From: Eledone cirrhosa
Taxonomy: Eukaryota
Direction: 5' to 3'
Assembly (NCBI GenBank): GCA_964016885.1
Contig: OZ024744.1
Location: 40,176,001-40,240,000 of the forward strand
DNA length: 64,000 nucleotides
Both the position numbers and the translations under genes were made by a program. The notes beneath the pieces were generated by a model that saw only the letters and a list, made by a program, of their open reading frames with translations, did not search any database and had not been told where the DNA came from. Below, piece after piece: positions 3,877-51,277 of the stretch; within the stretch, counting starts at the first letter, position 1, and each line of letters opens with the position of its first letter.

Positions 3877-4347
3877 CTGACTTTCTTTTTTCTGTGATAT
3901 ATATATATATATACTTTATAAATAACAATCAAAGAGTGTTTAATAATATTTAATTACTAACGATCATTTCACCCAAGCACAAGGCCGGAATCATCGGAGT
4001 ATAAATAAAAAGTTAGAACACAGATAACTTTGTCAAAGAACATTCAGGGGCTACCACACATGGAAAGAAAGCGAAAATAATAGATATTAACATAGATTTG
4101 TGAGAAGAAAGCAAACACTCTTAAATCTATGTTAATATCTATTATTTTCGCTTTCTTTCCATGTGTGGTATCCCCTGAATGTTCTTTGACAAAGTTATCT
4201 GTGTTCTAACTTTTGATTTATACTCCGATGATTCCGGCCTTGTGCTTATGTGAAATGATCGTTAGTAATTAAATGTTATTAAACACTCTTTGATTGTTAT
4301 TTATAAAGTATATATATATATATATATCACAGAAAAAAGAGAGTCAG
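3877..4347. repeat. near-perfect ~223-bp-arm inverted repeat; PLE-type terminus with hammerhead motif
   Basis: 3877-4099 is the reverse complement of 4123-4347 with a few mismatches and a 23-nt loop; (TA)n lies inside both outer ends. Confidence 0.95.
4221..4267 (+). ncRNA. variant minimal hammerhead motif (U4C); mirror copy at 3955-4001 (-)
   Basis: tact-CCGATGA-(weak stem II)-GAAA-tgatcg-TT-agta; stem I is tact/agta; stem III is a near-palindrome ATGATCGT. Confidence 0.5.
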
Positions 4348-4527
4348 TTTTAGTTTTAAGTTTTTACCGGTTGCACATTTCTAATGCTTTTCAAAAATAA
4401 TTTTAAGATAGAACCATCGTGATGTTAGCTCTAATCAGATTAGAGCTAACACCACGAGCGCTCTATCTCAAAATTATTTTTGAAAAGCATTAGAAATGTG
4501 CAACCGGTAAAAACTTAAAACTAAAAA
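4348..4527. repeat. second palindrome (~90-bp arms, 1-nt loop) abutting the first
   Basis: Centre gttagctctaatc-a-gattagagctaac; arms end in tttagttttaagtttttaccggttgcac / gtgcaaccggtaaaaacttaaaactaaa. Confidence 0.95.
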
Positions 4528-4649
4528 TTCCTAATTAAACTATTTTTCACTGGGAAAAATTTGTCAGCATTTTCTTTTCCTTTTTACTAATATATATATA
4601 TATATATATAGATATATAAATATACACGGGTGTGTATGAGTGTGTATAG

Positions 4650-6025
4650 AAGATTATATTAATAAAAGGAATTCCAACTTTGTCTGATTTACTCGTTTTA
4701 TTTACAATCCTTTAAATTTATAATGGTATTAGAATGAAATAGTATGGTGGAATATTAAATGTTAAGTGTTAATTGAACAAGTACTTTCACACTTTCGCAA
4801 TCTTCAGGTTCATAATGTGTGGTGACAGTCAAGTTTGCAATTTTCAACTGTAATGAGATGGGTAAATTTTGTGCCTTATATACAGTGAAAAGTGGCTCCA
4901 GAATGCTAAATCTTGCAAACTGTATTTCGACAAATCAGTGTGTAGTTTCACTGGATTGCTAAAGCTGATTGGTTTAGGCGTCACGGTTGGTTGAGCATGT
5001 CTAACAACTACTTAATTGACCCTATCCAAAGCATCAATTGTTTTGCTATTTTTAGAAATGATGAATATAGCATTTTCTAGTAATCATCACTATCAACATC
5101 ACTTTTATTATTATTATTATTGTTGTTGTTGTTGTTGCTGTTGTTGTTGTTAGTGGTCGTAGTCATAGTCATAGTAGGAAACCCCATTATTAATGTTCAT
5201 TTAGCTTGGGTTTGAATTTATCAATAAAATTCTTTTCATTGATTTTTCTCTTGATTTCACTTGGGCTGTGTAATTTGTAGAATGGGAATATTATAAATAT
5301 TCCCTGACCACATGTTGCTAGATGGTTACTTAGGGGTATCTGACGGACATTTGGGTCTCTGATTTGCTGCCGGTGTACCCGTGCATGTTCCGATAGTGCA
5401 TTTCCAGTTTGACCGAATTATAGTTCTTCACAATTCGGGCATTTAATGCAGTAAATTAGATTTCTGCTTTTGCAGTTCATATTTGCATTTGGGAATATTT
5501 TTCCAGTTTTTGTTTTCATATATTGACCGGCGTGTATGGATTGACATGTGCCACATCGACTATCATTGCATTTAGATGCAGTGAATGATTGGTCTTTGTT
5601 GTTAAGGTCAAACTTTGCTTTTGTTAGTAATTGCTTCAAATTTTTCGGCTGTCTTTTACTAAGAGTCAAAGATCGATCTGTGATTAAGCCTTTTAATTCA
5701 TTACTTTGAGCAATGATCGGTAGGTTTGCTTTGGCAGTGTTGAAGATATTCTGGTGACATGGGTTGTGTGTCATTATAAATGGTATGACCAGTTCTTGGT
5801 TTCTTCTTCCTTGGGTTGTCCTAAGTTGTTGTATAGGTATTTTTATAGCCCGCTGTATGCCATTTTCTATAAGTAGAGATGGGTATTTTTGTTTGAGCAA
5901 AAGTTCTCTTAGTTCTGTTAGGCGTTTGTACCTGGTATTCGTATCTTCTACAATGGTACAAATTCCTCTGGCTAGGCAGTATGGGATGTTGAGTTTTGTA
6001 TGAGGTGGATGGCATGACTTAAAAT
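4650..6025 (-). mobile_element. 5'-truncated Penelope-like element (Neptune-like), RT thumb + GIY-YIG endonuclease, pseudogenised
   Basis: ORF 5418-5900 and its continuation: KCNDSRCGTC linker, then NLIYCIKCPNCEEL*IGQT...RVHRQQI...NHL...EKNFIDKFKPKLN. Upstream LNFKSCHPPHTKLNIPY is a typical PLE thumb. Confidence 0.92.
4774..4812 (-). ncRNA. minimal type-I hammerhead ribozyme in the PLE 3' pseudo-LTR
   Basis: Minus strand: tgaac-CTGAAGA-ttgcgaaagtgt-GAAA-gtac-TT-gttca; 5-bp stem I; palindrome AAGTACTT spanning stem III. Confidence 0.85.
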
Positions 6026-6069
6026 TCAGATATTGATGGGTGTCTGTGTGTTTATAATATATATCCGTG

Positions 6070-6351
6070 GTAATTCAATTCTCAGACCAGGTGATGTGTT
6101 GTTTCCTTGAGCAAGACACTTTATTTCACATTTCTCCAGTTTACTCAGCTGTAGAAATGAGATGATAGGGACTGGGATCCATATCATCCCACTGCAAAGT
6201 GGTCGTGGAGGTGCCACGGCAAAAAAGTACCCAGCACTCACTGTAAATGAGGTTGGTGTTAGGAAGGGCATCCAGCTGTAGAAATAAAGCCAGAATCAGT
6301 TCCCGTCCCACCCTTGCAAGCAGGGAAAACAGACGTAAAACGATGATGATG
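6070..6351 (+). mobile_element. tRNA-derived SINE with RTE-derived 3' tail
   Basis: ttcaattctcagacc...tccttgagcaagacactt core followed by the RTE tail ggttggtgttaggaagggcatccagctgtagaaa...(gat)n. Other copies at 31535-31908, 42366-42765 and 50835-51160. Confidence 0.85.
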
Positions 6352-7171
6352 ATATATATATATATATATATATACATATATCGTTTCTGAATTTGGCAAC
6401 ATGACCCTCCCAAAGTATAACAATATATACATATATATATATATGGCATTGTTATTAGATGTTGAAAAGAGCAGTGGCCTAAGACCTGGAAATAAAAACT
6501 GGAGACAAATTTCTTTCTGTACCAAAAACAAGGCACACACAGACACACACACAAGTTTGTTTGTGTGTGTGTGTGTGTGTGTGTGTGGGGGGGGGGGGTT
6601 ACTGTACATGTGCGCGTGTATGTCTGTGTGTGCATCTATCTTGGTATATATATAAGGGATATTGTTTGTTCACTGTCACCAAGCATCTCAATTCATTCGT
6701 TGCAACTAAATTTGTGATCGAGGCACTTTATTTTGCAAGGTACTATTTTTCCCTTGAGTTTGTGATTCAAGAGAAAGGTATGAATTTATTCATATTTTGC
6801 ATCTTTTGTATTTTGACTTTACAGTTTGAATTGTCGAATTGTGTATCCACACAAAATATTACAACAGCTAACAGTGAAATATAGAATTTTAAAAAAAAAA
6901 GCTTATCCGACTGAGATCAAATCTTTGAGAATATTCACATCTTTTTTTTTTTTAATATATAATTTGAAATAGCTTGCTTTTGTTTTGGACTGAAACTTTT
7001 TTGTATTTAATTCGTATGAATATTTTTTAAAGATCTTTTAAAGATTCTAACATAACTTGATTTGGCCCAGTAATCTACTGATATTAAAATCAGTAGTATA
7101 TTGAAAAATGGAAAAGTAGGGTAGAGGACGTTTCGTGATTTTGAGGGGCAAAGATAGGTTGAGAACCTTTG

Positions 7172-8652: not shown

Positions 8653-8727
<75 letters not shown>

Positions 8728-9393: not shown

Positions 9394-9462
<69 letters not shown>

Positions 9463-12671: not shown

Positions 12672-12922
12672 GTGTGTAGGACAGAACAAAGGAGAGGCAC
12701 AAAAGCAAAGAAAAGAATCCCCAGTCACTGAAGAGGTCACAGAATGTGTGACGAAAGAACTTTGACAATATATGAACAACCGTCTGGTTATGGAACCAAC
12801 CAACCAACCGTAAATTTATAAATTCTTAAATTTATAAATTTAATTTATAATAAATTGGAGTGAAAGCAACTGGTGCGTGTGTTTCTTATTGGCAACATGA
12901 CCCTCCCAAAGCATAACAATAT
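12672..12922 (+). mobile_element. short PLE-type terminus ending in (TA)n
   Basis: Homologous to 32064-32270 (-); shares the terminal ggcaacatgaccctcccaaag(c/t)ataacaata|tata with 6393-6425 and, more loosely, 39370-39395. Confidence 0.75.
12724..12766 (+). ncRNA. minimal type-I hammerhead ribozyme
   Basis: gtca-CTGAAGA-g-gtcaca(gaatg)tgtgac-GAAA-gaac-TT-tgac; stem I 4 bp, stem II 6 bp. Confidence 0.82.
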
Positions 12923-17437: not shown

Positions 17438-18003
17438 GTAGTAGTAGTAGTAGTAGTAGTAGTAATGTAAGTTACCTGATAATCTTTGTTTTATTTTTTT
17501 GGTGTTGCAAGAACAAAAAAACCACAACAAAGATTATCAAGTAACTTCCATTTTTGTTACCTCATTTTACAGTCCATTGCGCAGTGTTTTGCCTTCTATC
17601 TCTTTCCACAATTTATGCAGTGAGTTTCTCTGCCCTAGGTGTTGGGAAGACACTTGGCAAAAAAATGGAAACAAAATTGAAGGAAGAAGAAAAACACAAA
17701 TAATAATGATAATAATAGCAACAATAATTGTAATAATAATAACAACAACAGCAACAATAATATTTCGTCAATTTATTGCCCATTGAAAAATAAAATTGTT
17801 TACAATGATTCTAGTGCTTCCAAAACAAAACTGGATTGCTATTTTATAGAATGTTAATTACAAATGGCCAATAATACACAGGTACTTGATACATGGATAT
17901 TCAATTCACAGATAAAATATTTAATGAATAAAATCCAATTAAATATTTTCCAATGAAAAATATCTTGATGTCATTGTTAAAATATAAATAATGTATGTAT
18001 GTA

Positions 18004-19726
18004 TCATCATCATCATCACCGTTAAACGTCCATTTTTCCATGCTGGCATAGGTTAGACGAGTTATCCTGTTGTGAGCAATGCCAGGTCAGGTGACCATGT
18101 CTTGCTCATACAGAACTGATTTGGGCTTGGTTTCTACAGCTGGATGCCCTTCCTAACACCAACCTCATTTACAGTGAATACTGGGTGCCTTTTGTTGTGA
18201 CACCTACATGACCACTTTATAGTGTGGACTGGGTGTTTTTTGCTGTGACACCTACACGACCACTTTACAGTGTGGGCAGGGCACTTTTTGTCGTGTCACC
18301 ATAATGACCACTTTACAGTGTGGGCTGGAGGTTTCACTGGATGTGTACTTCAGCTTGTCCTCATGGGAGATGTATGGAAGTGGGTGAGGTGGGATAGGGT
18401 GGTGCATACTATATATTTGCTTCAGCTTTGGCCTATGCCCGTGGGAAGTTGGGTCTTATGTATTACTGCATAACGACAGAGATCTCGGTCCTGTATCATC
18501 TCTGTTGAGAGGTGCAATTGGGTAAGGTCAGCTTTTATCACCTCGTCCAAAGTCTTTCTGGGTCTCCCCACTCCACAGCTCCCATCGACTTTAGGCATTC
18601 TGCCCCTTTTTATACAGCATCACATGTCCATACCAATGCAATCTCCTCTCCTGCACACTGCATCTGATTCATTTTATGCCAGTTTCTCTCTTAGTACGTT
18701 TTATGCTTTGCCATTCATGTATATTACTATTCATTCCTTTCCAATCTACTCAAGTCTTCTGCACACAATGCCCAGGTCTTACCACAATGCAATATTGCTG
18801 TTCATATGCACGCATCATTCAATCTGCCTTTCATTTTGAGGGAAAAGCCTTTTACAGCTAGAGGTAGTAGTAGCTCCCTGAACTTCTTCCATTCTGTTCT
18901 TACTCTAGTTACTGTATTTTCAGAACACCCACCTCCACCGCTAATTCAGTCACCTAGGTAGCAAAAGCTGTCTACTGTTTCTACTGAACCCTCCCAGAGT
19001 TTGGTAGTGGTTGTTTTCTGTGGTTGTTTGTTGTTTACTGTTCCAGTGCAACCGTTACATGTAAAGTCTTCATTTCTAGCTAAACTTCCTGAGATCCCAC
19101 TATATCTCTTGTGTACTCATAGTTTGCATTTGGGGCAGAGGATGGAGCTCCTACCTACACCTTTCCTACATACTGAGCAAGGCCATTTTCCTGTGGGGAT
19201 CAGGTTTCTGTTTTCTTTTCTACTTAATAGGTCCTTAGTTTTTGTCAGGTTGACTTTAAAACACCTTTTTTCTAGACCCTGCTTCCATGTTTGAAATTTT
19301 TTCTCTAGTTCTAACATAGATTCAGCTATAAGTGTGAGATCATCTACATACAGAAGTTACCATGGGCAGCAGGTCTTAAACATCTCTGTTATCACCTGTA
19401 GTACGATAATAAAAGGAGAGGGCTAAGAACAGAGCCTTGGTGGATGCTAAATTCCCCGCTATAGTCATTGTTAATCCTAACTTTGCTAGCTTCTCCCCTA
19501 TACATGGCTTGTACAGCCTTCATAAGACACTCATCTACTCCTAGTTTTCTAAGAGCCCCACAGATTATGGCACAGGGCACTCTGTTGAAAGTTTTTCCCA
19601 GATCAACAACTGCCAGATAGAGCAGCTTACTTTTAGCTAGGTACTTTTCCTGTAACTGCTTCATCAGGAAGAAAGCATCTGTAGTGCTTTTGCCTGGTAC
19701 AAATCCAAACTGCATCTCATCTAGAT
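18004..19726 (-). mobile_element. degenerate 5'-truncated RTE LINE
   Basis: ORF fragments 19392-19736 (QFGFVPGKSTTDA) and 19117-19317 (WPCSVCRK); (cat)n tail at 18004. Confidence 0.92.
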
Positions 19727-19748
19727 GTATGTACATATGTATGTATGT

Positions 19749-22700
19749 TTTTCTGGTTTTATAATTTCACAAATTTTTACCAATAGAGAGAGAGTGTCAG
19801 TTTCTCACATAGACACAAGACTCTCTCATTGGAATTTACACATCAACTAGGCAGATTACGTATGCATGCCTGCATGTGTAGATATGGATGTTATTGTATG
19901 TGTGGATGTGGATGTTTTGAGTTGTATGTGTGCATGTGTATATGCTTTGTATATGTACATGTGTATATGCAGTTATAAGATGCACAATTTTTGGAATGTT
20001 TTACATATTTTTACTGTTCCATTAATGGATTCATCATCATCATCATCATCGTTTAACGTCCCTGTTCCACGCTTGCATGGGTTTGGACGGGGGTTTTCCC
20101 ACTTGAAGCAAGAGTGGTTGTCTTGCTCGCATAGGACTGTCTGGCGGGTTTTCTACAGCTGGATGCCCTTCCTAACACCAACCACATTTACAGTGTGGGG
20201 CTGGGAGGTTTTTACCGTGTTGCCTACACGGCCACATTACAGCGTGGACTGTCTGGCGTGTTTTCTACAGCTAGATGCCCTTCCTAACACCAACCACATT
20301 TACAGTGTGGGACTGGGAGGTTTTTACCGTGTTGCCTACACGGCCACATTACAGCGTGGACTGTGTGTTTTTTTGTCGTGACACCTACACGATCTCGTTT
20401 GTTTCGGCCTGGATGTTGTGACACCAACATAACTTTGCATTGAAGGGGGCGGTGTGGATGGGGTGGGACGGGGGTGTATTTTGTTAGAGATGCCTACTGA
20501 CTAGTAGGTTTTACTTTGTATTTAGGTAAGGCGGGTCTTCTCTGTTACTGAGTACCGCCAAAGGTCTCGGTCCAGTGACATTGTCTTGGAGAGGTGTAAG
20601 TGTGTGAGGTCGGAATTTATCAGCTCGTCCCAGGTTTTCCTGGGTCTGCCTACTCCGTGGCTACCATCTATCTTTATTGCCCTGCACTTTGTTATACAGC
20701 TGTCGTCTTTCATGCGCATCACGTGACCATACCAACGTAGCCTTCTCTCGAGTAAACAACATCTGATCCCTCTTATTTCTAATTTTTTCCTTAGTTCGTT
20801 TATGCTTTGCCGTTCACGTATATTACTATTACACATCCAGCAGAGCATGCAAGCTTCGTTCCTCTCTAGTCTGCGTATATCCTCTGCACACAATGCCCAG
20901 GTCTCACTGCCATGCAACATTGCTGTTCGTATGCAGGCATCATACAACCTGCCTTTCATTTTTAGGGAGAACCCTTTAGCGGCTAATAGTGGTATAAGCT
21001 CTCTGAACTTTTTCCATCCAGTTCTGACTCTAGCTACTGTACTTTCAGAGCACCCTCCCCCACTGCTGATTTTGTCACCCAGGTAACGGAAACTGTCCAC
21101 TATTTCTATAGAACCCTCTGTGCAATTGAAAGAGTTAGTATTTTGTGGGCACTTGCTGCTACTTATTGCACTAGAGCACCGGCCACATGTAAAATCTGTG
21201 TTCTTAGTTAGCTTACCTGTGATCCCACTACATCTTTTATGCACCCATACTTTGCATTTGGGACATAAAATGGAGTTTCTACCTACGCCTTTCCTACACA
21301 CTGAGCATGGCCATTTCCCGGAAGGGACCGCCGCCTTATTTTCTTTCCTACAAACTAGAACTTTAGTCTTAGCCAGGTTAATTTTAAGGCCTTTTGATTC
21401 TAGGCTGTGCTTCCATGTTTGGAATTTGGATTGTACTTGTAATTTCCTAACTAGTTGTGTTCTTTCTGTTCCTGTGAAGCCTAGCTTCTCAAGATTTGTA
21501 TTGAGGCAGTTACTAACATACCCCAGTGCCCCAATAATCACAGGCATAAATCTGAAGGTGTAATCATGGTGGAGTATCTGCAGATTTCTCACCAGTTCTG
21601 CATAAATATTCTCTTTTTCGGTAATCTTTGATATTATATTTGCATCTGCTGGGCAGCTAACTTCCACTTGTGTGCATGCTTTCTTCTCCCTGTCCCATAT
21701 CATAATATCTGGTCTGTTATGCCTGCATTTTATTGGGGTTTTTACTGGAACATTCCACCAGTATTCTTTCATATTATGTATATTGATGTCTTCCACATTG
21801 CTGTAGCTTTTAATGATTTTTTGCTGATAAGCATGCAGTTTTTCATCCATGGATTCACTGCGATACTGCTGAGTGACTTCCCTGGGTGTGAGTTTTTGAT
21901 TATCACACAGGGAATATCTCTTGAGGAGTTCCTTCTCAACTCTCATGATCTTATCTGTTTCATACAGATAGACTTGCTGAGAGGCAGGTTTCTACGCTTC
22001 GAGGTTCGCAGATGTTGTCGGAGGGATATGTTGCGACATTCAAATGCTGTCTGGACTGATGTTAGGCCTCTGCCTCCCTGCTTACGTTTCAAGTAAAGAT
22101 GGTCTATGTCACTGTTAATGTGGAAGTTTCCGGTGTTGTTTAGTATTTTCCGAGTTCTAACATCAACTGGTCGGATTTCGTCTATTGTCCAATTGAGTAT
22201 TCCAGATGTTGGTGTTAGGACAGGCACAGCAAACACATTGTGAGCCACTGTTTTGTTTAGCGCAGAGAGTTCCGATGACCAAATCTTTCTTAATCAGGTG
22301 TAGTATTCCCTGGTTACGCGTTCCTTATTACAGATACCATTATAGGATATGTTCTTATCTATCCCCAGGCATCTGTAGCAGTCCTCATCAGATATCGGTG
22401 AATCAGTTAGGCCATTGATGACAATGTTGTTAGATTGGGTTGTTGTTTTTCCCTGCTTTACAGGCATATATGAGCATTTACCAAACTCCGTTCCTATATC
22501 CTTTGAGAATGTTGTAACCAGGTCGAGATTTTTCTTCATCCGATCCATGTTCTTGGCATAGAGTTTCAGATCATCCACAAAGAAATTATAGGTTCGGTTC
22601 ATATTTCTGTCCTCCTGTGAGCCAATGATGTATCCTTCACATTTCTTAGCAGAAAGTACAAGGGGTTTAATGACAGAATGAATAATATCACAGGGAGACT

Positions 22701-27326: not shown

Positions 27327-29907
27327 TTAAAGTCACTAACCTACATGTAGGTAGCCTGTAATAAATATAACGTTGTTTCCTTACTGTCTAAGATAGCAAT
27401 GGGATTAAATTGTTGCAAGGATGTCTGTGTTGGAATGTGTGTACACTTTGGATAAAAAGATTGAAAGATATACTGTAATTTTTGCACAATACCTGAACTG
27501 ATATATGAGTAAAGTAAATATAGCTGCTCTCTCAGAGATTTAACTGGAAGATGATTGTCAGCTGGAAGAGGTTGGAGGTGGTTACATATTTTGTTTGGAA
27601 AGGTATGTCAAAAGGACAATGCAAGAAAGTTGGTGTTGGTTTTGTAGACTATTCAGGGTATATTTCCTATTTCACCAAGTCATAGAAATCATGGTAATAA
27701 GAATTGAGAGAATTCTTCAATTACATGAAAAACATCACAATCTCTCCAGTGTTGGAGCCACAATAAAATATATCTAGTACAGTGTAAAGTGGTTGGTGTT
27801 AGGAAGGGTGTCCAACGATAGAAACTGCTAAAAGATGGAATTTATTGAACAAGAGCTGATCCCTTTGATCTGTCTGGGAGGAGAAAATCTCTGAATAAGT
27901 TCTGTCAAACCCATGCCAACATGAAAAATTGGATATAAAACGATAAAAATGATGATGAAGACAACAAAAAAAGAGGATGATGATAAGAATGTTAATGACA
28001 GGTCTTTTTTCAGTTTCCATTTATCAAATCCCACTTATAACCTATTGCTCAACTTGAAGTTATGGAAGAAGAGACTTTCCTAAAGTGCCATATATATAGA
28101 TCATCTGACCGATTAATCAATAATTACTTAAATAATTAGTAACAATCTCACTGCTGGAATTTATATTTATCTCTTTGTAAATTCCTCCATTACAGAATAA
28201 TTTAATCGTTTTTAATTTGTACACAAGGCCAGATATTTGAAGGGTGGGGATAAGTGCTTTACATCAGCCCCAGTACTTGACTGGTATTTACTTTATTTTA
28301 TTGACCACAGAAGGATGAAAGGCAAAGTTGATACCAGCATGATTTGAAATCAGAACATAAAGAGCCATAATTGAATACCATAAAGCATATTGTTTGGTGC
28401 TGTAGTGTTTCTAATCCAATTTAATGAAAGACCATTAATAGACTCTGGACACTAAGTTTTCTTTATACATGCATTTATAACTGTTAAAGACCTTACATTT
28501 AAGATTTATCATTCAGTATTTACAGAACAGCAATGTTTACTTAGAATTGTTTTCCTGTACATATATATATTCAATTAATTATTCATTGGTCATCAATACT
28601 TTCTTTTTATCATTAAATCTTAATGTCAATCTCATTAAATTAACACAGCCTATAGGCAAGACTCATACTTCCTGGAACATAATTTCTGCTCATATAATTA
28701 CTTTAATTATTACCCTTCAGTCCTTCATTCGTAGCATTATTATCAATAACTTCATATCTTCATATGCTCTGAATAAAAAAAGAAAATTTAACTTTGTGCC
28801 TAACCAAGTAAAAATGCACAAGTGACATTTGCAAATTAGTGAGGAAACTTTTACACATTCATGTGAACTATTTTCTTCTATAATTGGAAGTCACTCCCAA
28901 CAAGGCCCCAAGAAACCAACGAAACAGCAGGCCTCAAACAACCAGTTAATTTGTTGGGAGCTACAAAAGAAAATAAAAAAGAATAAAATATATAGAAAAT
29001 CTAATGAGATGCTGCTTTTGAAATCAGAAAATGATCAGCAGATGAGTGAAAAGAATGAAACCATGGAAACAAGATCAAGGAAGAGAGTTCCATAAGACAA
29101 ATGTTTGAAGAAAGAAACTGCTGGAGTAAAAACTGTTCTTACAAGAAAGGGACAACCACAGTGTAAGTAGAGCCACTCAATTAGCAACTTAAAAGAAGAA
29201 ACAAAGTGAATAAAGTTTGGCAAAATAATAACCATCGAAGTTATTTTCTTGTGATGACAGAGGGGTTGATGTTTAGCTGTCAGAACTAGATCAACCATGT
29301 TAGAAACTCAATATAGAAAACCAAATTTCATAGTGGCTGATATATTAAAATCCTCTTAACTATTTAATTTGTCAACTAAACCTCAGTCTTTCTCTCAAAA
29401 ACTCTCTATCACCATTAAAAATAAGATCACACGTTGTAAATCTTATATTTTGGTCTTGGCAAGAATTTCCCATCTAGATGCTGGATAGGCATAAACTGCA
29501 TCTTATGCTTTCATATTTGTAATGTAAGATTTTTGCAGGATTGAACCATTTGACAATCTATCATACAATATAGTGTTGGCAATTTATTTATTTATTTATA
29601 TTGCAATTATTGAGCACTATTGGTTATGGGTTCCCAATGAACCAATTGCTGCATTTTTGACAGCAAAGAGTTGATAAGGAAGTGTCTGTAACTTATTTGC
29701 AAATCACCAATTTTTAAGTTTTCTTGTCAATGTTTAAATCCTTCATCAAAATGTTAGACTAGAATGAAAGTTCTCTCTGGATTAAGCATGTATTTTACAT
29801 ATTGAAATAGAAGTATTTATGAATGTATTTTAAAACAAAATTTGTTTTCGTTCTAGCATGGTGGATACTTAAATGTATTTGTGAATAAATAATAATATTA
29901 TAATAAT

Positions 29908-30310
29908 ATTTATTTAAATTTCATATTTCTAAAGAAATACAGTATGTTTATAAATAAACATTTAGAAAGCCATAGCTATGAATGACACTTACAGCTAGCG
30001 CCACCAAGTGGTGCTCGGCAGAAGCAAGGGGGACAATCGTCGATGCATTTCAAACTCAATTGGTTTTCATCAGGATGATCTCTCCAGCTCTTACAATTGC
30101 TGGACTTTCTTCCCAGCAGTTGCAAGACTGGGAGAGATCGTCCTGATGAGAACCAGTTGAGTATAAAATGCATCGACAATTGTCCTCCTTGCTTCTGCTG
30201 AGCACCGCTTGGTGGCGTTAGCTGCCAGTGTCGTTCATAGCTACGGCTTTCTAAATTTTTATTTATAAACATACCATATTTCTTTAGAAATAAGAAATTC
30301 AAATACATAT
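29908..30310. repeat. imperfect ~195-bp-arm palindrome carrying a hammerhead motif in each arm
   Basis: 29908-30103 versus 30112-30310 reverse complement, with scattered mostly transition-type mismatches. Confidence 0.93.
30036..30079 (-). ncRNA. minimal type-I hammerhead ribozyme; degenerate mirror copy at 30137-30180 (+)
   Basis: Minus strand: atcatc-CTGATGA-aaac(caattga)gttt-GAAA-tgca-TC-gacgat; stem III palindrome ATGCAT. The consensus of the two arms gives a perfect stem I atcgtc/gacgat. Confidence 0.8.
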
Positions 30311-30762
30311 TTGCATACAGCTATGTTTAAAGCTAAATTCTAATTCTATTTTATAATGATATTATTAATATTCAGTTTGTTTGCAAGCAAACAGCCTCAT
30401 AACACGATGCGTGTTTTCTGGATGACATGGTCATCCTTTTGTTCTAGCGGTTGCTGAGAGAAAACAGTCAACAATTATTTTGAAGTTATTGCCCCTTATC
30501 GAGACTGTGTATCCTTGTCGCTGCTGCCTCCTGGAACTGCTGAGAAAATGCCTGCCTGTGTATTAGCACAACCTCTGGAGTATTTTCCATTTAAGTATGA
30601 AGGGGGTGGAATTCTTCTTGAGGTCCTATATGTAGCCAGCAAATGTTGTTTGGTTTGATTTGTCTAGCTGCTGAAAGAGTGGGTGTGGGCATAACACAAT
30701 GTCTTAAAGTTATTGGATGTCATACCAATGTATTTTTTTGTGCTTATTGTATGTATGCGTGT

Positions 30763-31468: not shown

Positions 31469-31502
<34 letters not shown>

Positions 31503-31534
31503 TTTTTTTAATTTATTTATTTTTATTTTATCAT

Positions 31535-31905
31535 TATTTTACGTCTGCTTTTCCCTGCTTGCAAGGGTGGGACGGGAACTGATTCTGGCTTGATTTCTAC
31601 AGCTGGATGCCCTTCCTAACACCAACCTCATTTACAGTGAGTGCTGGGTGCTTTTATTCTGTGGCACCTACACGTCCACTTTACAGTGAGTCCTGGGTGC
31701 TTTTTTGCCATGGCACCTCCATGACCACCATGCAGTGGAATGATAGGGACCCCAGTCCTATCATCTCATTTCTACAGCTGAGTAAACTGGAGCAATGTGA
31801 AATAAAGTGTCTTGCTCAAGAAAACAACACATCACCCGGTCTAAGAATTGAACTCACAACCTTTCGATTGCAAGGCCAATGCTCTAACCACTAAGCCATG
31901 TGCCT

Positions 31906-31908
<3 letters not shown>
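31535..31908 (-). mobile_element. full-length tRNA-derived SINE with RTE tail
   Basis: Minus-strand head ggaggcacatggcttagtggttagagc...gagttcaattc (A and B boxes); RTE-type tail. Confidence 0.9.
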
Positions 31909-31943
<35 letters not shown>

Positions 31944-32016: not shown

Positions 32017-32063
<47 letters not shown>

Positions 32064-32070
<7 letters not shown>

Positions 32071-32415
32071 ACACTTTGGGAGGGTTATGCTGCCAACAAA
32101 AACACACACACCTGTTGGTTTTCACTTCAATTTATTATAAATTTCCTGTTAGCTGGCTCAATAACCAGATGCTTGTTTATATATTGTCAAAGCTCTTTCG
32201 TCACACATTCTGTGACCCCCTCAGTTACTGATTTCATATTTTGTGTCTCTCCTTTGTTCTGTCCTACACCATCTTGTTTTTGTGTGTTTGTGTGTTGATA
32301 TGCAAAATACGAAAACAGTCACTGAGGAGGTCACAGAATGTGTGATGAAATATATAAACAAGCATCTGGTTATTGAAGCAACCAATCAGAAATTTATAAT
32401 AAATTGAAGTGAAAC
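32064..32415 (-). mobile_element. PLE-type terminus with inverted partial copy and two degenerate hammerhead motifs
   Basis: Arms ~32119-32230 and 32316-32415; cores CTGAGGG (32186-32228, -) and CTGAGGA (32322-32350, +) share stem II gtcaca/tgtga(c/t); ends in (TA)n. Confidence 0.8.
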
Positions 32416-35039: not shown

Positions 35040-35755
35040 GGAGGAAACAGGACATAACGCGGTAAATCAGACTCTGTTCAGTCCTGGTGCATGATGTAAA
35101 AAGACACCAAGGACTGAGACATGTAGAAGAGTAACCTGGATGATGGGAGTATCCATACTGAGTTGTATGTCCTTCAAATGTTCAGCAAAATAGTTTGCCA
35201 AATGGCATCCCCTTTGTCCAATGTATAAGGATCCGCAAATGGAACACCGGAGAGCATATACAACGTGGGTGAAGGTGCAGGTGAAGGAGTTGCAGATATG
35301 GAATGAAACATTGGTGCCTGTGAGAGTGGTGAGGTTGGAAATGAAAGGAGAGGTGTTATATGGGAGACGAGAACAAGGATGAGAGCCAGATGAAGTCGTT
35401 TAAGAGGACGAGAAGGAACTGTGCCAGGAGGTCGCAGAGATTACAGGCTCGCTTAAATGTGGTAATAGGTGGGTTAAGAAATATGTGAGAAGTGACGGGG
35501 TCAGAAGAGAGGGTGCGGAAAGAATTGAGAGTATGTCTCTGGAGAGGTAGGGTAAAGAGTTGGTAGGTGAGAGGGAAAGGAAGGCAGGTGTTGGGAGAAC
35601 TTTGGTGAGGTGAGAAGGCTGCGGTACAGTCGTTTTTATGGAGGCGGGTGAGAGCAGCTTGGATCAAGGTGGGGGGATATCCACGCTGGATGAAGTGGGA
35701 AGCGATGTGAAGGAAATGGGTTTTGAAATTGTGATCCTGGCTACAGAGCCGATCA
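35040..35755 (-). mobile_element. degraded Penelope-like element, thumb/linker + GIY-YIG
   Basis: Minus strand reads SFTCTFTHVVYALRCSICGSLYIGQ...FAEHLKDI; ORF 35356-35667 has PFPLTY...PPITTFKRACNLCDLL. Confidence 0.82.
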
Positions 35756-36571
35756 TCATCATATCATCACTATCATCATTTCACATCCAATTTCCCATGG
35801 TAGCATAGCTTAGACGATTTGTCTCATTGTGAGATCAGATAGCTGTGTCTTGTTCAGACAGAACTATTTCTGGCTTAGTTTCTACGGCTAGATACACTTC
35901 CTAACACCAACCACATTTACAGCATGGACTGGGTGATTTTTGTTGGGACACCAACACAACCATTTCACAGGGTGGACTGGGTAGTTTTTATCATGTCACC
36001 AGCATGACCACTTTACAGTGTGATCTGGGTACTTTTTATTGTGTTACCAACATGACCATTTTATGTATGCAACAGGCTTCTGCAGTTTCTGCCCATCAAA
36101 TTTCATTCACAAGGCATTAGTCTGGTCAGCCCCAGGCTATATATATAGTAGAAGACACTTGCCCAAAGTGCCACACTGAAGGACTGTACCCACAAACATG
36201 TGGTTGTAAAGGAAATTCCTTAATCACATAGTCAACTATGCCTGAATTGTATTTGGAAAGAATGAAAGGAATGTTTGAGGACTCTGTGCCCATAACCCTC
36301 TCAGGTATAAGTGGGCGAAGAAGAAAAGCTCTACCAACTTCACTAAATCACTGCTCTCAGAAACTTGGCTATTAAAACCGACAATGCCAAGATTCTGTTT
36401 ACATCAATTTTATATATTTCCAAAACTGATATATATATAATAATAACATTAATAAAGATGGTGATGTTACATAAATCGTTTATTCATTATTATCTCCAGC
36501 TTGCTCCTGTTTTTACTAAAACAATCTCTTCGGAACACACACACACAAGCACACACACATACATACATACA

Positions 36572-36635
<64 letters not shown>

Positions 36636-36642
<7 letters not shown>

Positions 36643-37627
36643 GTTTGAATATGTATAATAAAACCAAAACAATGCAGGTATGGACATAGAAAAAAGAATG
36701 CAATTGCAATTGCAAAAGATATTGTTGACAATTCGTCTTTTACCTTAGATTTATTTTAAACGTCCTTAATTTTCGAGATAATATCTCTTCTTCAGAGGGA
36801 AATAAAGGTCTCAAACCAGCGTTCTAAATATCTTGCCAAGCCATGCTGACAGGAAATAGTATAGAGTATCTGTTCTATCTCTAATGTCAAAGAGTTAAAA
36901 TTAGGTGGATAAAGAGTAGTCTCCCTTTAAAAGGGGTTTGTTTAGTTGTTTTTTTTATATACATGCCTGTTTAAGTGTGTGGGAGAATGCATGAAGGTGT
37001 AAGTATGTGAGTGTGTGTGTGTGTGAGTGTGAGAAGATAAGTCTATTCGTAAATGTGGGGGATAGGTGTTATCTGGTGTTAGAACTGGTTTTGTGTGTGT
37101 GTGTGAGAGAGAATAAGTGGAGGTGTAAGCGTGTGTGTGTGTGCGTGCGTGTGTGTGTATGGGGTGTGTAAATATGGGGCTAGAAGCCCTATCAGGTTAT
37201 AAATTGGGTGTTGAGTTCTAGTCTATTATTGATAGGTGGTTGTGTTTTATCAGGCATGTATATAAAAAAAAAACCCCTAAACAAACCCCTTTTAAAGGGA
37301 GACTACCCTTTATCCACCTAATTTTAACTCTTTGACATTAGAGATAGAACAGATACTCTATACTATTTCCTGTCAGCATGGCTTGGCAAGATATTTAGAA
37401 CGCTGGTTTGAGACCTTTATTTCCCTCTGAAGAAGAGATATTATCTCGAAAATTAAGGACGTTTAAAATAAATCTAAGGTAAAAGACGAATTGTCAACAA
37501 TATCTTTTGCAATTGCAATTGCATTCTTTTTTCTATGTCCATACCTGCATTGTTTTGGCTTTATTATACATATTCAAACGTTTATACCTCATTACACAAT
37601 GCTTCAAGTGAACTATAACATCCTCCA
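36636..37627 (+). mobile_element. PLE-type inverted pseudo-LTR pair (~335-bp arms) between (TA)n tracts
   Basis: 36636-36969 is the near-identical reverse complement of 37251-37586; only the right arm has a ~40-nt extension (37587-37627) before (TA)n. Confidence 0.9.
37424..37458 (+). ncRNA. minimal type-I hammerhead ribozyme; identical mirror copy at 36764-36798 (-)
   Basis: cct-CTGAAGA-a-gagat(att)atctc-GAAA-at-TA-agg; stem III palindrome AATT. Confidence 0.75.
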
Positions 37628-37643
37628 TATATATATATATATA

Positions 37644-39320
37644 TCATCATCATCATCATCAACGTTTAACGTCCGTGTTCCCCGCTTGCATGGGTTTGGA
37701 CGGGGGTATTCCCACTTGAGGCAAGAGTGATTGTCTTGCTCGCATAGGACTGTCTGGCAGGTTTTCTACAGTTGGATGCCCTTCCTAACACCAACCACAT
37801 TTACAGTGTGGGTCTGGGAGGTTTTTACCGTGTTGCCTACACGGCCACATTACAGCGTGGACTGTGTGTTTTTTTTGTCGTGACACCTACACAATCTCAT
37901 TTGTTTCGGCCTGGATGTTGTGGCACCAACATAACTTTACATAGGAGGGGGTGGTGTGGATGGGGGTGTGGGTGGTGGGACGGGGGTGTATTTTGTTAGA
38001 GATGCCTACTGGCTGTAGTAGGTTTTACTATGTATTTAGGTAAGGCGGGTCTTCTCTATTACTGAGTACCGCCAAAGGTCTCGGTCCAGTGACATTGTCT
38101 TGGAGAGGTGTAAGTGTGTGAGGTCGGAGTTTATCAGCTCGTCCCAGGATTTTCTAGGTCTGCCTATTCCGTGGCTACCGTCTATCTTTATTGCCCTGCA
38201 CTTTGTTATACAGCTATCGACTTTCATGCGCATCACGTGTCCGTACCAACGTAGCCTTCTCTCGAGTAAACAACATCTGATCCCTCTTATTTCTAATTTT
38301 TTCCTTAGTTCGTTTATGCTTTGCCGTTCACGTATATTACTATTACACATCCAGCGGAGCATGCAAGCTTCGTTCCTCTCTAGTCTGCGTATATCCTCTG
38401 CGCACAATGGCCAGGTCTCACTGCCATGCAACATTGCTGTTCGTATGCAGGCATCATACAACCTGCCTTTCATTTTTAGGGAGAACCCTTTAGCGGCTAA
38501 TAGTGGTATAAGCTCTCTGAACTTTTTCCATCCAGTTCTGACTCTAGCTACTGTACTTTCAGAGCACCCTCCCCCACTGCTGATTTTGTCACCCAGGTAA
38601 CGGAAGCTGTCCACTATTTCTATAGAGCCCTCTGCGCAATTGAAAGAGTTAGTATTTTGTGGGCACTCGCTGCTACTTATTGCACCAGAGCACCGCCCAT
38701 ATGTAAAATCTAAGTTCTTAGTTAGCTTACCTGTGATCCCATTACATCTTTTATGCACCCATACTTTGCATTTGGGACATAAAATGGAGTTTCTACCTAC
38801 GCCTTTCCTACACACTGAGCATGGCCATTTCCCGGAAGGGACCACCGCCTTATTTTCTTTCCTACAAACTAGAACTTTAGTCTTAGCCAGGTTAATTTTA
38901 AGGCCTTTTGATTCTAGGCCGTGCTTCCATGTTTGGAATTTCTTCTCTAGCTCGGCCATTGATTCAGCTATGAGTGTCAGGTCGTCTGCGTATAGGAGTT
39001 CCCATGGGCAGCCGGTCTTGAACTCCTCTGTTATAGCCTGAAGGGCAATAATAAATAGTAGGGGGCTGAGAACAGAGCCCTGATGGACGCCAACTTTTAC
39101 GCTAAACTCTTCACTATATTCGTTGTTAATTCTAACCTTGCTGACTGTTTCTTTATACATGGCTTGTATAGCTCTCACAAGCCATTCGTCGACACCTAGT
39201 TTTCTAAGGGCCCACCAGATAATGGAACGGGGGACTTTGTCAAAGGCTTTCTCCAAGTCGACAAAAGCTAAGTAGAGGGGTTTACCTTTAGCTAGGTACT
39301 TCTCCTGTAGTTGACGTACA
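37644..39320 (-). mobile_element. young 5'-truncated RTE LINE
   Basis: Uninterrupted 406-aa ORF 38036-39256 (KAFD, HQGSVLSP, YADD, PHD finger); (cat)n tail. Confidence 0.96.
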
Positions 39321-39323
39321 ATG

Positions 39324-39377
<54 letters not shown>

Positions 39378-39577
39378 ATATTTGGGGAGGGTCATATTTG
39401 CGTAATATTGCCAGAATTAATAACAGAACACACTCACTGTTTGGTTGGTTTTCGCTTCTCGCTGTCTTTTATATATATATATCTGCGATCTAACTTACTC
39501 GGTCCTCAATGTTGCCATTGACTGACCGGCGGTCAAAAATAATACAGATACAATATAGACAAACTAATTCATCGCCG

Positions 39578-42020
<2,443 letters not shown>

Positions 42021-42042
42021 TCTCTCAATTCTCTCTCTCTCT

Positions 42043-42074
<32 letters not shown>

Positions 42075-42077
<3 letters not shown>

Positions 42078-42332
42078 AAGTTTTATTTAAATTGTTGGGT
42101 TAGAACGAGTAAATATTTATAACTGATATAAAAGCACTCAACAAGTATTTGGAGTATATTTACGATCTTAAAAATGGAAAGTATATTTATAAAACCATAT
42201 TTATTTCATTATATATATTTCAGGGATATCATATTAAAAATATGTTATGCCTTCTTCAGACAAAATACAGTATAAACAGTCTTATAAATAGATAGATTTG
42301 ACATACCTTTCAACTTCATCTTCCATTTAAAA

Positions 42333-42337
<5 letters not shown>
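42075..42337 (-). mobile_element. ~260-bp solo hammerhead-bearing element between two (TA)n tracts
   Basis: Unique AT-rich insert bounded by (TA)n at 42045-42074 and 42337-42366, with an intact hammerhead core; no ORF. Confidence 0.75.
42202..42267 (-). ncRNA. minimal type-I hammerhead ribozyme
   Basis: Minus strand: tattttgt-CTGAAGA-aggcataacatatt(ttt)aatatgatatccct-GAAA-tatata-TA-atgaaata; 8-bp stem I (two G-U), long stem II, stem III palindrome ATATATAT. Confidence 0.85.
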
Positions 42338-43848: not shown

Positions 43849-43853
43849 ACACA

Positions 43854-44007
<154 letters not shown>

Positions 44008-47764: not shown

Positions 47765-48528
47765 TGTGTGTTGTATTTGGTCCTAGATGTGTGTATTACC
47801 TGCCTGTGTGTTGTATGTAGTCCTAGATGTATGTATTACCGGCTTATGTATTGCATGTGGTCCCAGCTGTATGTATTACCTGCTTGTGTGTTGTATGTGG
47901 TCCTAGATGTATGTATTACCTGATTATGTGTTGTATGTGGTCCTACATGTGTATTACCTGCTTATGTGTTGTATGTGGTCCTAGATGTATGTATTACCTG
48001 ATTATGTGTTGTATGTGGTCCTAGATGTGTGTATTACCTCCTTATGTGTTGTATGTGGTCCTAGATGTGTGTGCTACCCCCTTATGTGTTGTATGTGGTC
48101 CTAGATGTATATATTACCTGCTTATGTGTTGCATGTGGTCCTAGATGTGTGTGCTACTCCCTTATGTGTTGTATATGGTCCTAGATGTATGTATTACCTG
48201 CTTATGTGTTGTATGTAGTCCTAGATGTGTGTATTACCTGCGTATGTGTTGTATGTGGTCCTAGATGTGTGTATTATCTGATTATGTGTTGTATGTGGTC
48301 CTAGATGTGTGTATTACCTGCTTATGTGTTGTATGTGGTCCTAGATGTGTGTATTACCTGCGTATGTGTTGTATGTGGTCCTAGATGTGTGTATTATCTG
48401 ATTATGTGTTGTATGTGGTCCTAGATGTGTGTATTACCTGCTTATGTGTTGTATGTGGTCCTAGATGTGTGTATTACCTGCTTATGTGTTGTATGTGGTC
48501 CTAGATGTGTGTGCTACCCGGTTCTGTG
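47765..48528. repeat. 40-bp minisatellite, ~19 copies
   Basis: Unit tgtgttgtatgtggtcctagatgt(g/a)tgtattacctgctta. Confidence 0.97.
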
Positions 48529-49419
48529 TTTTTTCTTTTCTTTTTTTATAATTGTAATATTATTTATACAATAGGGAATAAAATAGATCTAGATAGTGTT
48601 AACTTGTTACGGTTGAGTCAATAATTTCAGACATGAAATACATTGTTATTGGTGAAGGAAAGATAAGATTTAACTGGCTGCACTCAAAGTGTCCTTGACC
48701 CAGTTGACTGGGTTTTTCCATTGTTAAGATCTCAATTGCCGGTTAATGTCTAGACACGCCTGCTCACAGCTGCAGTCAGACCATAGTTATGCTGTCTGCA
48801 CGCTCATTCAAATGCATTCACATTGGCTGTCTCAAAGACACAAATATGGCTTATAAAACTTACCAAAGTAAAGAGCCTTCCAGTGCCCCCTAGTGTCCTC
48901 CAAAGCTCCAAACGCCCCCTAAACGCCCCCTTGTTATCAAACGCCCCCTGGACTTCAAAAACGCCCCCGGAGTCTATATGACCCCCCCCCCCCATTCAGA
49001 ACCTTCGACCTAGAACATTCTCATGTAACACACGAATAAGAGCCTTGTTGACATTACTTTTGTTAAATGTATTAAGGATTGGATGCAACTGGTGAATTAC
49101 ATAGGGGAGTAAGGAGACCAATAAATCTACATCTATGGTTACTGCAGAAAGAAGGGGACATAAGTTGTTGGAGAAGGGAATTGATAATGACTGTTTCCAT
49201 AACATTTGAAAGTGCATGGCTTAGTGGTTAGGTACTTTGGCTCATGATTGTAAGGTCATGAGTTCAATTCCTAGTGATGTGTTGCATCATTGAACTAAAT
49301 ACTTTATTTTATGTTGCCCCAGTTCACTCCACTAGCAAAAATGAGTTGTACCTGTAATTCAAAGAGCACATACTTTGTCACAGTCAATCTCCCTGAGAAC
49401 TATGTTAAGCGTGCATTTG

Positions 49420-49860
49420 ACAGAATTATCAAGCTCAGAATAGACATAGGCAATAGAATGACATGGTGACGTCAATGGATATGTTTGGCCACAACAGGCT
49501 GGTTACTTTAGATGTCACTGTGGCTATGGATACAGTATAGGAAACAGTGAGGCATCAAAGTTCCTTGAATTTAGTGATGCAAATGACCTATTTGCAATTT
49601 AGGAAGCTGGCAAACCACTTAATCACCTACCAATTGATTGAAACCAATTGATTGAAACCAGATTGATTTCGGGCTCAGTAGAAAATTGGATAGACAGATG
49701 GTTATGAAACCAAGTTTTTACCTGGAGAAGAATGCACCATTCAACATAAACTATGACATTTAGGAAAAGGAAGATATGGAAACTAAAGGAGCTCTCTGTT
49801 AAATATAATTAAAAAAATCTCTAGAGGGATGAGGATATAGATACTTATCATATAGAAAAC
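49420..49860 (+). mobile_element. degraded RTE APE remnant between SINE heads (49217-49410 and 49880-50000)
   Basis: Residual GYGY...FLEFSDANDL and ECTIQHKL-like segments. Confidence 0.55.
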
Positions 49861-50121
49861 AATTGGAAGCTTTTAAGTGAAGGCACATGGCTTAGTGGTT
49901 AGAGAATTGGATTCACAATCATGAGGTTGCGAGGTCGATTTCCAGACCGGGCAATGCATTATGTCCTTGACTAAGAGACTTTAATTCACATTGCTCTTTC
50001 TGTCAGGCATTGCAATTGGTATATGGTATCAGCAATGGAAAGACCAATGGAAACATTGTTTCCTTAGTCCAATTTGATAAGATCCACCCCACTCTGTAAG
50101 TATATGAGGTCTGGAACCTTG

Positions 50122-50525
50122 TCATCATCATCATCCTCATCATCATTTTACGTCCGCTTTTCGCTGCTTGCAAGGGTGGGACGGGTCCTATTCAACACAG
50201 CATGTCTCCACTTGTCATGGTCCTTCGACATCTCTGTGAGCTTCAGCAATCTGAGGTCTGCTCGCACCAACTCCGCCCATGTTTTTTGTGGTTTTCCTCT
50301 ACCGCATCTTCCTTCTACTGGGATTTCTTGGCACTTCGTTACCCAGCGGTCATCCTGCATGTGCATCAGATGTCCATACCATCGCAGTCTTCTCTCCCGC
50401 ACACCACAACTTATCCCTCTTATACACAGTTTCTCTCTCAGCTCATCTAGGCTTGGTCATTCACGCACATTGACATTGTACATCCAACGGAGCATGCTTG
50501 CTTCATTTCTCTCCAGCCGTCGCAT
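50122..50525 (-). mobile_element. RTE 3' fragment
   Basis: ORF 50148-50402 RERRLRWYGH...GRGKPQKTW; (cat)n tail. Confidence 0.88.
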
Positions 50526-50834
50526 AATTGATAAAAAATGTGACAACTTGGTGCAGGCTACAGACAATTTATGTCAACCAGAACAAAGGTGAGCTGATGG
50601 TGGAATAATACGGTAAACAGAGTCAATAAAGATAAGAGTCAGGTATGGAAAGATAGAAAAATGGGAGCAACAATGATGGAAAAAGTTTAAGAAGCTATTC
50701 CTACTTGGAAAAATATATATATGTGATGACATATATATATCCTTATCAAGACAAGTTGTCCTGTTTACATATATATATATGTGTGTGTGTGTATATAAAT
50801 ATATATAAATATCATCATCATCATTTCATCATTT

Positions 50835-51160
50835 CATTTTTACGTCCACTTTTCCCTGCTTGCAAGGGTGGGATGGGAACTGATTCTGGCTTGATTTCTA
50901 CAGCTGGATGCCCTTCCTAACACCAACCTCATTTACAGTGAGTGCTGGGTGCTTTTTTGCCGTGGCACCTCCACGACCACTTTGCAGTGAAATGATAGGG
51001 ACCCCAGTCCCTATCATCTCGTTTCTACAGCTGAGTAAACTGCAGCAATGTGAAATAAAGTGTCTTGCTCAAGGAAAAAACACATCACCCGGTCTGAGAA
51101 TTGAACTCACAGCCTTTCGATTGCAAGGCCAATGCTCTGACCACTAAGCCATGTGCCTCC
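50835..51160 (-). mobile_element. full-length tRNA-derived SINE with RTE tail
   Basis: Near-identical to 31535-31908. Confidence 0.9.
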
Positions 51161-51206
51161 ATATATATATAATATAAAATCAAAAGATGGTTAAAAGAGT
51201 TCCATG

Positions 51207-51277
51207 TATTTTATTATGCGCATTTCAAAAACAAATATCATCATGGGATGACATTTGCGTTCTCATCAGATAAAATA
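51207..51277 (-). ncRNA. minimal type-I hammerhead ribozyme (best example in the window)
   Basis: Minus strand: tattttat-CTGATGA-gaac-gcaaatgtcatc(ccat)gatgatatttgt-tttt-GAAA-tgcgca-TA-ataaaata; perfect 8-bp stem I, 12-bp stem II, stem III palindrome ATGCGCAT. Confidence 0.92.

Follow-up and report, generated by a model that had tools for sequence, protein, structure and literature searches.

The window analysed here, 64,000 nucleotides (nt) of the Eledone cirrhosa genome (assembly GCA_964016885.1, contig OZ024744.1, positions 40,176,001 to 40,240,000 of the forward strand), contains a series of short elements which carry minimal hammerhead ribozyme motifs and lie mostly in (TA)n tracts. An earlier note, made from the letters alone, had listed about nine of them as a diverse ribozyme-retroelement system mostly devoid of open reading frames (ORFs). 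In our reading, to which we give a probability of about 85%, eight of the nine are hammerhead-bearing pseudo-long-terminal-repeat (pLTR) ends of protein-coding Penelope-like elements (PLEs), 5′-truncated or joined head-to-head in (TA)n; the ninth, a retrozyme-like unit of 340 nt, codes for no protein and likely uses the same enzymes. The elements are mainly known debris of endonuclease-containing (EN+) PLEs plus one new retrozyme-like family, and no new class of element is among them.

The evidence comes largely from copies elsewhere in the genome. Each element was searched against its own genome (3.0 Gb, 1796 contigs), the loci were compared by k-mer walks, and the families were named by the position of the hammerhead in the window: A (4221), B (4477), C (4774), D (12724, with an older relative at 32186), E (30036), F (37424), G (39773), H (42202), I (51207) and J (61727). 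All families are multi-copy, with 56-2589 first-look candidates each (797 in A, 1473 in B), which are lower-quality counts and not copy numbers. In eight of the nine families (A, B, C, D, F, G, H and I) copies are joined in sense to an upstream ORF of the Penelope-like reverse transcriptase (RT)/GIY-YIG type, and only E is ORF-less. The note was right to propose PLE-type minimal type-I hammerheads mobilised by PLE RT/GIY-YIG proteins, but the linkage contradicts its "mostly ORF-less" system.

Linked reading frames and hammerhead motifs

Two hammerheads flank a single RT plus endonuclease ORF in H (3.8 kb apart; L295, L296), G (5.0 kb; L297, L298) and F (3.1 kb; L300), and no whole pLTR-ORF-pLTR unit was seen for A-D or I among the fetched loci. 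A sense upstream ORF is found in C (L308, L309), D (L301, L302), I (L299) and B (L303-L305), family A has only a broken endonuclease piece, upstream in sense (L307), and an endonuclease piece is present in 2 of 20 loci of family J. Pfam recognised RVT_1 in four of 13 ORF pieces (two above cut-off) and GIY-YIG in five (one above cut-off), most of these matches lying just under the threshold, and found nothing in five of the 13, namely four Hydra-type pieces and the RT piece of B. On the six ORF remnants of the window Pfam gave no RT or GIY-YIG match, and their identity was taken from the longer genomic copies.

The Hydra clade of PLEs has RWK-like and DKT motifs and a CxCX5C linker, the Neptune clade a CX2-5CxxC linker (Craig 2021, PMC8557442). 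RW, DKT and CxCX5C were read in H, and the CxCX5C linker also in I and A (the RT motifs were read in H only); G, C and D have a CX4CxxC linker, and that of F is different. The motifs point to Hydra for H, I and A, and to Neptune for G, C and D, with the limit that a CX2-5CxxC linker alone cannot separate Neptune from Nematis; family B probably goes with Neptune. In the ORF of family H (L295:2481-4550), and likewise in that of family I, an asparagine-rich stretch lies between RT and endonuclease, which recalls the N-rich inserts of rotifer PLEs (Arkhipova 2013, PMC3846280). Families H and G are young, being about 1% diverged with near-intact ORFs. As short and long copies are inseparable by sequence in H (p = 0.94), I (p = 0.68) and G (p = 0.72), the short copies of these families are read as truncated products of autonomous elements.

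The hammerhead motifs of the window are real and well above chance. The type-I order of stem I, core, stem II, GAAA, short stem III, UH and stem I′ is present at all ten positions listed in the earlier note. A strict descriptor finds four matches in the window against 0.04-0.29 expected from 200 block-wise dinucleotide shuffles, none of which reaches four. When an extra nucleotide is allowed after A9, seven intact-core matches are found against 0.03 per shuffle (40 shuffles, maximum 1), and when one core change is allowed there are 11 against 1.1 (40 shuffles, maximum 4), the match at 17980 among the 11 looking like chance. The match density is far above that of dinucleotide-shuffled sequence, a comparison which the note had itself proposed. 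Among the 108 Rfam matches of the window (E up to 5) there is no hammerhead family; minimal motifs score below the models.

Stem III had been described as nearly always palindromic, and this holds: it is fully palindromic in all four strict matches, even though the descriptor required only one stem-III pair and no palindrome. In 1.21 Mb of fetched loci, which were selected for the families so that the count is not a genome density, a palindrome-free descriptor gave 269 matches, 175 of them with a perfect palindrome, against three in five shuffles, none palindromic. The intact-core motif of family D at 12724-12766 has an insert GAAC in stem III and no perfect palindrome.

The commonest core letters (C3-A9, G12-A14, A15.1-U16.1, H17) are canonical in families C, D, E, F, H and I, and family G shows the known U3/A8 covariation. 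The canonical type-I core is absent from A, where the core reads CCGAUGA (U4C), and from B, where GCAA replaces GAAA (A13C); both changes are fixed and represent the family norm rather than decay. The motifs of A and B are hammerhead-derived, and their activity is doubtful. A 2017 study by Lunse reportedly treats PLE hammerhead variants and may cover such cores. Three further motifs were missed by the descriptors: that of G, in which stem I next to the core is only 2 bp long, that of E, in which each arm has a disabling change, and the degenerate one at 32186. A tenth motif, at 61727 (+), was absent from the note's list. The claim that the elements are unrelated in sequence stands for most families at the DNA level and fails for two pairs, as H and I have a common stem I, and G and B a common core and stem III.

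Departures from the commonest letter are half as frequent in core columns as in neighbouring ones (27/2404, 1.1%, against 333/14117, 2.4%). As the copies of one family are near-identical or decaying, the stem covariation seen is that across families. The motifs are like the pLTR hammerheads of metazoan PLEs (Cervera and De la Pena 2014, PMC4209133) in their type-I form with a short stem I, palindromic positions 15.2-16.2, the extra nucleotide after A9 and the U3-A8 variant. The resemblance extends to many dissimilar families per genome, to mostly single motifs tied to truncated PLEs and to motif pairs 100-700 bp apart on opposite strands. Unlike the families in the part of that survey available to us, A and B have fixed U4C or A13C cores. 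The U4C change is known from a viroid, with some function kept in vivo (Perreault 2011, PMC3088659).

Insertion ends, tails and palindromes

In each family the 3′ end is fixed, about 70-210 nt downstream of the hammerhead. (TA)n is found there in 192 of 259 sampled rows against a background of 10%, either directly (142 rows) or after a short extension (50 rows); the remaining rows end on other microsatellites (23, of which 20 are family C), read on (8), stop short of the motif (20) or belong to none of these groups (16). The docking in (TA)n recorded by the note is confirmed by these counts, the window copy of family E being an exception, as it lies outside any (TA)n tract. A preference for (TA)n is known for the Hydra and Neptune clades (Craig 2021, PMC8557442; Arkhipova 2013, PMC3846280). 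The optional 3′ extension of about 35-80 nt corresponds to the PLE "tail".

In the window A, B, the copy at 32063-32414, E, F, G and I are folded back, and C, H and the copy at 12724 are not. These palindromes are head-to-head, with the 3′ ends pointing outward and the 5′ ends meeting. A tail is present at exactly one end in 55 of 63 inverted insertions (binomial p = 5e-10 against independence), and in 33 of 38 when family B is left out; a second count, without E and H and with G redefined, gave 53 of 60. No tail is defined for family C. In family H nine inverted partners fall short of the main arm by about 80 nt. The arms are equal in 29 of 43 simple discordant pairs, the tailed arm is longer in six, all from family G where the query favoured that outcome, and the tail-less arm is longer in eight. 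In these eight of the 14 unequal pairs each arm has sequence missing from the other, and arms that are not nested cannot have been made one from the other by snap-back. Priming on RNA is therefore likely for both DNA ends, which agrees with the ability of an anole PLE protein to cut and extend both strands (Frangieh 2024, PMC11167929).

The 5′ ends were analysed in B, C, D, F, G, H and I, with positions given relative to the hammerhead core. In B they pile up between -41 and -49 (16 of 29 rows, or 14 of the 27 distinct insertions), in D between -52 and -75 (16/29), in I between -67 and -87 (10/29), in H between -80 and -92 (9/29) and in G between -133 and -179 (10/29), and a full-length G copy (L126 = L297) begins at the G point. 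Family B was queried from -16, and its pile-up is less affected by query design. At the pile-up sites stand what we take to be initiator-like and YY1-like words. As PLE promoters lie in the pLTR (Schostak 2008), the pile-ups probably mark RNA 5′ ends. Fixed-point 5′ ends in five families give palindromes that look like miniature inverted-repeat transposable elements (MITEs).

A mechanism can be proposed in which the PLE RT/GIY-YIG protein would cut (TA)n, a target seen directly in the insertions, the cutting itself being modelled on in vitro work with the anole PLE. Reverse transcription would then begin at either of two internal sites of the RNA, separated by about 35-80 nt; the sampled loci have two alternative 3′ ends, and their link to RT start sites is taken from Frangieh 2024. 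Both sides of the break would be primed, one likely at the distal and the other at the proximal start, and the two cDNAs would meet 5′ to 5′. Such dual priming would produce a head-to-head palindrome with a tail on one end, as the one-sided tails and non-nested arms suggest. Many cDNAs would stop at a family-specific point 40-180 nt upstream of the core, likely the 5′ end of an RNA begun at the pLTR promoter, and such stops would leave MITE-like copies of the fixed length that the pile-ups display. Hammerhead cleavage likely takes place in dimers formed through the palindromic stem III, as the literature has it. Cleavage is probably dispensable for insertion, because A and B have spread with fixed core changes.

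Much of this has counterparts in known systems. The EN+ PLE insertion unit includes an inverted 5′-truncated copy, a 30-40-bp tail, a (TA)n target and a TATA/initiator-like sequence in the pLTR, and the insertions described here are like such units in their partial tandems, adjacent inverted pLTR and often one-ended tail (Arkhipova 2013, PMC3846280; Craig 2021, PMC8557442). They differ from the published units, as far as these accounts go, in the one-sided rule, which was counted here (55/63), and in tails of about 55-80 nt in some families. For the anole element Poseidon PAc, in vitro work found internal RT initiation at two sites bounding the tail, cutting and extension of both strands, an AT-rich target and no need for hammerhead cleavage in insertion (Frangieh 2024, PMC11167929). 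The spread of A and B fits the last finding; the present elements belong to other clades than Poseidon PAc.

Family E and the competing explanations

The unit of family E is defined by the 340 nt between two hammerhead cores in L015, and two hammerheads are also present in L321. Its own 3′ part lies upstream of its hammerhead, and some 19 of 30 rows are longer than a single unit; same-strand runs reach at most 641 nt (less than two units), the copies are dispersed and a long array was not seen. No consistent ORF adjoins E in 60 rows (about 57 loci). Matches to PLE proteins near eight distinct E loci were considered as a partner and rejected, being of different families, in mixed orientation or downstream. 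In the hammerhead of family E, which has a closing helix, stem I is 7 bp and stem II 4 bp long, sizes which canonical metazoan motifs also have (Cervera and De la Pena 2014, PMC4209133). Copies of E end at either of two 3′ positions, some 40 nt from each other, and among 11 inverted pairs nine have the longer end on a single side, with a few pairs ambiguous because of tandem copies.

An ORF-less unit of 150-450 nt, head-to-tail repeats and a type-I hammerhead per unit are the marks of a retrozyme, and all are found in E. The ORF-less tandem unit is not found in A-D or F-I, which are linked to PLE ORFs, and the note's non-autonomous retrozyme relatives survive in E only. Animal non-LTR retrozymes (Cervera and De la Pena 2020, PMC7229834; Li, Clavereau and Pollet 2026, bioRxiv 10.64898/2026.07.22.740005) are likewise ORF-less units with head-to-tail repeats and a type-I hammerhead (closing helix, stem I of 6-7 bp, stem II of 4 bp), and their mobilisation by PLEs was proposed in both papers. 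Unlike them, E is dispersed in runs of less than two units, and its PLE signature of two ends and a one-sided tail is not mentioned in the main text of Li 2026. Family E fits a non-LTR retrozyme inserted in the PLE way and would likely use the same PLE enzymes as the other families.

A bolder account can be built on this. In it E is a retrozyme with the two-start-site signature of PLEs and a TA target, which would be direct evidence, at the level of insertions, that animal retrozymes are mobilised by PLE proteins. The palindromes would be built by one RT dimer that primes both break ends at the two start sites and runs to a promoter-defined RNA 5′ end, mass-producing MITE mimics, while families with dead cores (U4C, A13C) still spread. 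We consider the chances of this whole account to be evenly balanced.

If the palindromes were not made by dual priming, they could have come from snap-back, in which a cDNA primes on its own 3′ end, or from later homogenisation of the arms by hairpin repair. The snap-back route is close to the model of Arkhipova 2013 (PMC3846280), who proposed self-priming on an antisense template. It would account for the centre of the B palindrome on a native near-palindrome (ATC-A-GAT), for copy-specific changes common to both arms, for the mirrored flank of window copy A and of L213, and for the equal arms in 29 of 43 pairs. It does not account for the eight of 14 unequal pairs in which the tailed arm is the shorter and neither arm could be copied from the other, and these non-nested arms argue for dual priming. 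Plain snap-back also gives no reason for a stop exactly at the second RT start site, and the own arm is the nearest relative in only 7 of 21 B copies. As the general origin of the palindromes it is unlikely, and it may explain a minority of copies. Far less credible still is the idea that the palindromic elements, B above all, are true DNA-transposon MITEs with a hammerhead match by chance. A palindromic query of family B, which retrieved the same centre and length at 24 of 24 loci, had raised B as a fixed-centre MITE, and the GCAA in place of GAAA and the TA flanks fit this. The one-arm query ruled it out, returning mostly single arms, with 10 of 29 rows extending far upstream. Three B rows reach a GIY-YIG ORF, and this linkage largely refutes the idea; the ends of B are unequal (one-sided tail in 18 of 21), unlike terminal inverted repeats, and a related motif with canonical GAAA exists at other loci. 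Equal terminal inverted repeats, copying as a unit and lack of a link to RT, which define MITEs, are contradicted in B by the one-sided tail, the single arms and the upstream GIY-YIG ORF.

It is also improbable, though less so than true MITEs, that most of the elements are non-autonomous ribozyme retroelements in their own right, be they retrozymes or solo pLTRs which propagate themselves, and merely borrow PLE proteins. Family E fits this fully, and solo pLTRs with a fixed 5′ end would hold a promoter, a hammerhead and an RT start site. Short copies differ from long ones clearly in B, where they share variants (three columns, 6-7 short against 1 long; p = 0.001), and weakly in D (p = 0.017). 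The eight families that run into PLE ORFs speak for PLE debris instead, as do the variants common to short and long copies in H, I and G and the 5′ ends outside the pile-up, which are scattered as in truncation of the long interspersed element (LINE) type. The tail of the B palindrome lies on either side (9 right, 13 left) and the arms of one B copy differ by 2.5% against 4.2% to other copies, so that the palindromes look built at each insertion.

Several points weigh against the reading as PLE debris plus one retrozyme-like family. Forty candidates were scored per search and up to 30 loci kept, so that the samples are the 24-30 best matches and not random copies, and some rows are the two arms of one insertion or segmental duplicates. 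The 5′ pile-up is absent in F and C, whose queries started at about -165 to -170, and in D, G, H and I the queries began near the 5′ end of the window copy, by which the pile-ups are possibly inflated. The short B copies are partly a separate subfamily (p = 0.001). Clades were placed by motifs and not by a tree, F is unplaced and the linker of the B copy was read without its first Cys. In the test of core conservation related rows were counted repeatedly, so that its p value is overstated, and the effect is absent in E and C. BLAST against the non-E fetched loci found neither an autonomous partner nor a homologous pLTR for E. Finally, the flank is mirrored over 22-35 bp in two of five tail-less/tail-less pairs (window A, 22 bp; family B L213, about 35 bp), which suggests snap-back copying or later conversion rather than dual priming in a minority of insertions.

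Features of the window and meaning for PLE biology

The positions of the elements are collected below.

Hammerhead-bearing elements of the window (window coordinates; clade names as indicated by linker and RT motifs)
Element	Position	Strand	Details
Family A, two 3′ ends of a Hydra-type PLE joined head-to-head	3911..4311		arms 3911-4114 (-), 4118-4311 (+); flanked by (TA)n on either side, tail absent
Family A hammerheads	3959-3997, 4221-4267	-, +	fixed U4C core
Family B, fold-back pLTR of a Neptune-like PLE	4349..4618		centre about 4437, left arm shortened
Family B hammerhead-like motifs	4365-4394, 4477-4512	-, +	U3/A8 core, fixed GCAA
Family C, 5′-truncated Neptune-type PLE	4622..6074	-	3′ untranslated region; hammerhead 4774-4812
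Family C ORF remnant	5418-6074		RT thumb, CX4CxxC linker, start of GIY-YIG
Family D, solo pLTR of a Neptune-like PLE	12676..12922	+	hammerhead 12724-12766, intact core
Family E, head-to-head pair of ORF-less 340-nt retrozyme-like unit	29905..30350		left arm with short end, right arm with long (tailed) end
Family E damaged hammerheads, one per arm	~30036-30085, ~30137-30185	-, +	
Older family D relative, head-to-head	32063..32414		73% identity; degenerate hammerheads; adjoins (TA)n 32020-32065
Family F, head-to-head PLE ends	36640..37627		tail-less longer arm 36640-37250 (-), shorter arm 37251-37627 (+); flanked by (TA)n on either side
Family F tail and hammerheads	37587-37627 (tail); 36767-36795, 37427-37455	-, + (hammerheads)	40-nt tail; intact hammerheads
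Family G, pLTR of a 5.0-kb Neptune-type PLE	39621..40084		39621-39966 (-); hammerhead ~39773-39820, U3/A8 core
Family G shorter inverted arm	39969-40084		no hammerhead
Family H, solo pLTR of a 3.8-kb Hydra-type PLE	42074..42336	-	a (TA)n tract on each side; hammerhead 42202-42267 intact
Family I, head-to-head Hydra-type PLE	51164..53172		arm 51164-51772 (-), intact hammerhead 51207-51277
Family I second arm	51749-53172	+	broken ORF 51771-53024: RT thumb, CxCX5C linker, endonuclease
Family J, PLE pLTR	61572..61820	+	intact hammerhead 61724-61774, short 5′ fold-back 61572-61637

Around these elements the window holds further repeats. Families A, B and C are crowded within 0.3 kb round common (TA)n tracts (4311-4622), and the same 22 bp stand inverted beyond (TA)n on both sides of the family A palindrome (3876-3913 and 4309-4347). 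A tiny family D remnant between two (TA)n tracts (6375-6443) consists of a reversed tail end joined to the last 40 body bases. Another broken PLE ORF piece, from RT thumb to the GIY-YIG region, lies at 35067-35763 (-) with no hammerhead match close by. TA tracts are repeated landing sites, also for short interspersed elements (SINEs) headed by tRNA. Copies of a LINE which we take to be RTE-like, 5′-truncated and several of them near-identical, are found at 1956-3488, 17982-19766, 20031-21427, 37627-39391, 40249-42024 and 59904-61399, and their 3′ end is common to tRNA-headed SINE-like repeats (e.g. 50788-51176 and 31471-31934). A tandem satellite with a 40-bp unit occupies 47765-48530 with about 19 units.

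In the flanks of the fetched loci at least eight further hammerhead sequence classes are present (e.g. L042, L049, L297, L300, L306, L307), one of which is a relative of family B with canonical GAAA. Clustered H-like hammerheads of 75-88% identity, 100-500 bp apart, in L299:233-871, L305, L312 and L298 are possibly another short non-autonomous or fold-back family. A literature search, mostly at the level of search listings, gave nothing on these families and nothing tying PLE inversions to twin priming. A search of sequencing runs with the family G query listed four runs of one study, none of them with RNA, which has no bearing on expression.

For genome annotation, such families would be filed as MITEs or unknown repeats although they are PLE ends, and the mislabelling which the note foresaw is to be expected, as the palindromes mimic MITEs. 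How the inverted insertions of PLEs are formed and what the hammerhead does are open questions of the field (Craig 2021, PMC8557442). For these questions the genome has the young families H and G and yields sharp predictions, namely dual priming, a transcription start at the 5′ pile-up and dispensable cleavage, and family E offers a natural substrate for the mobilisation of a retrozyme by PLE protein.

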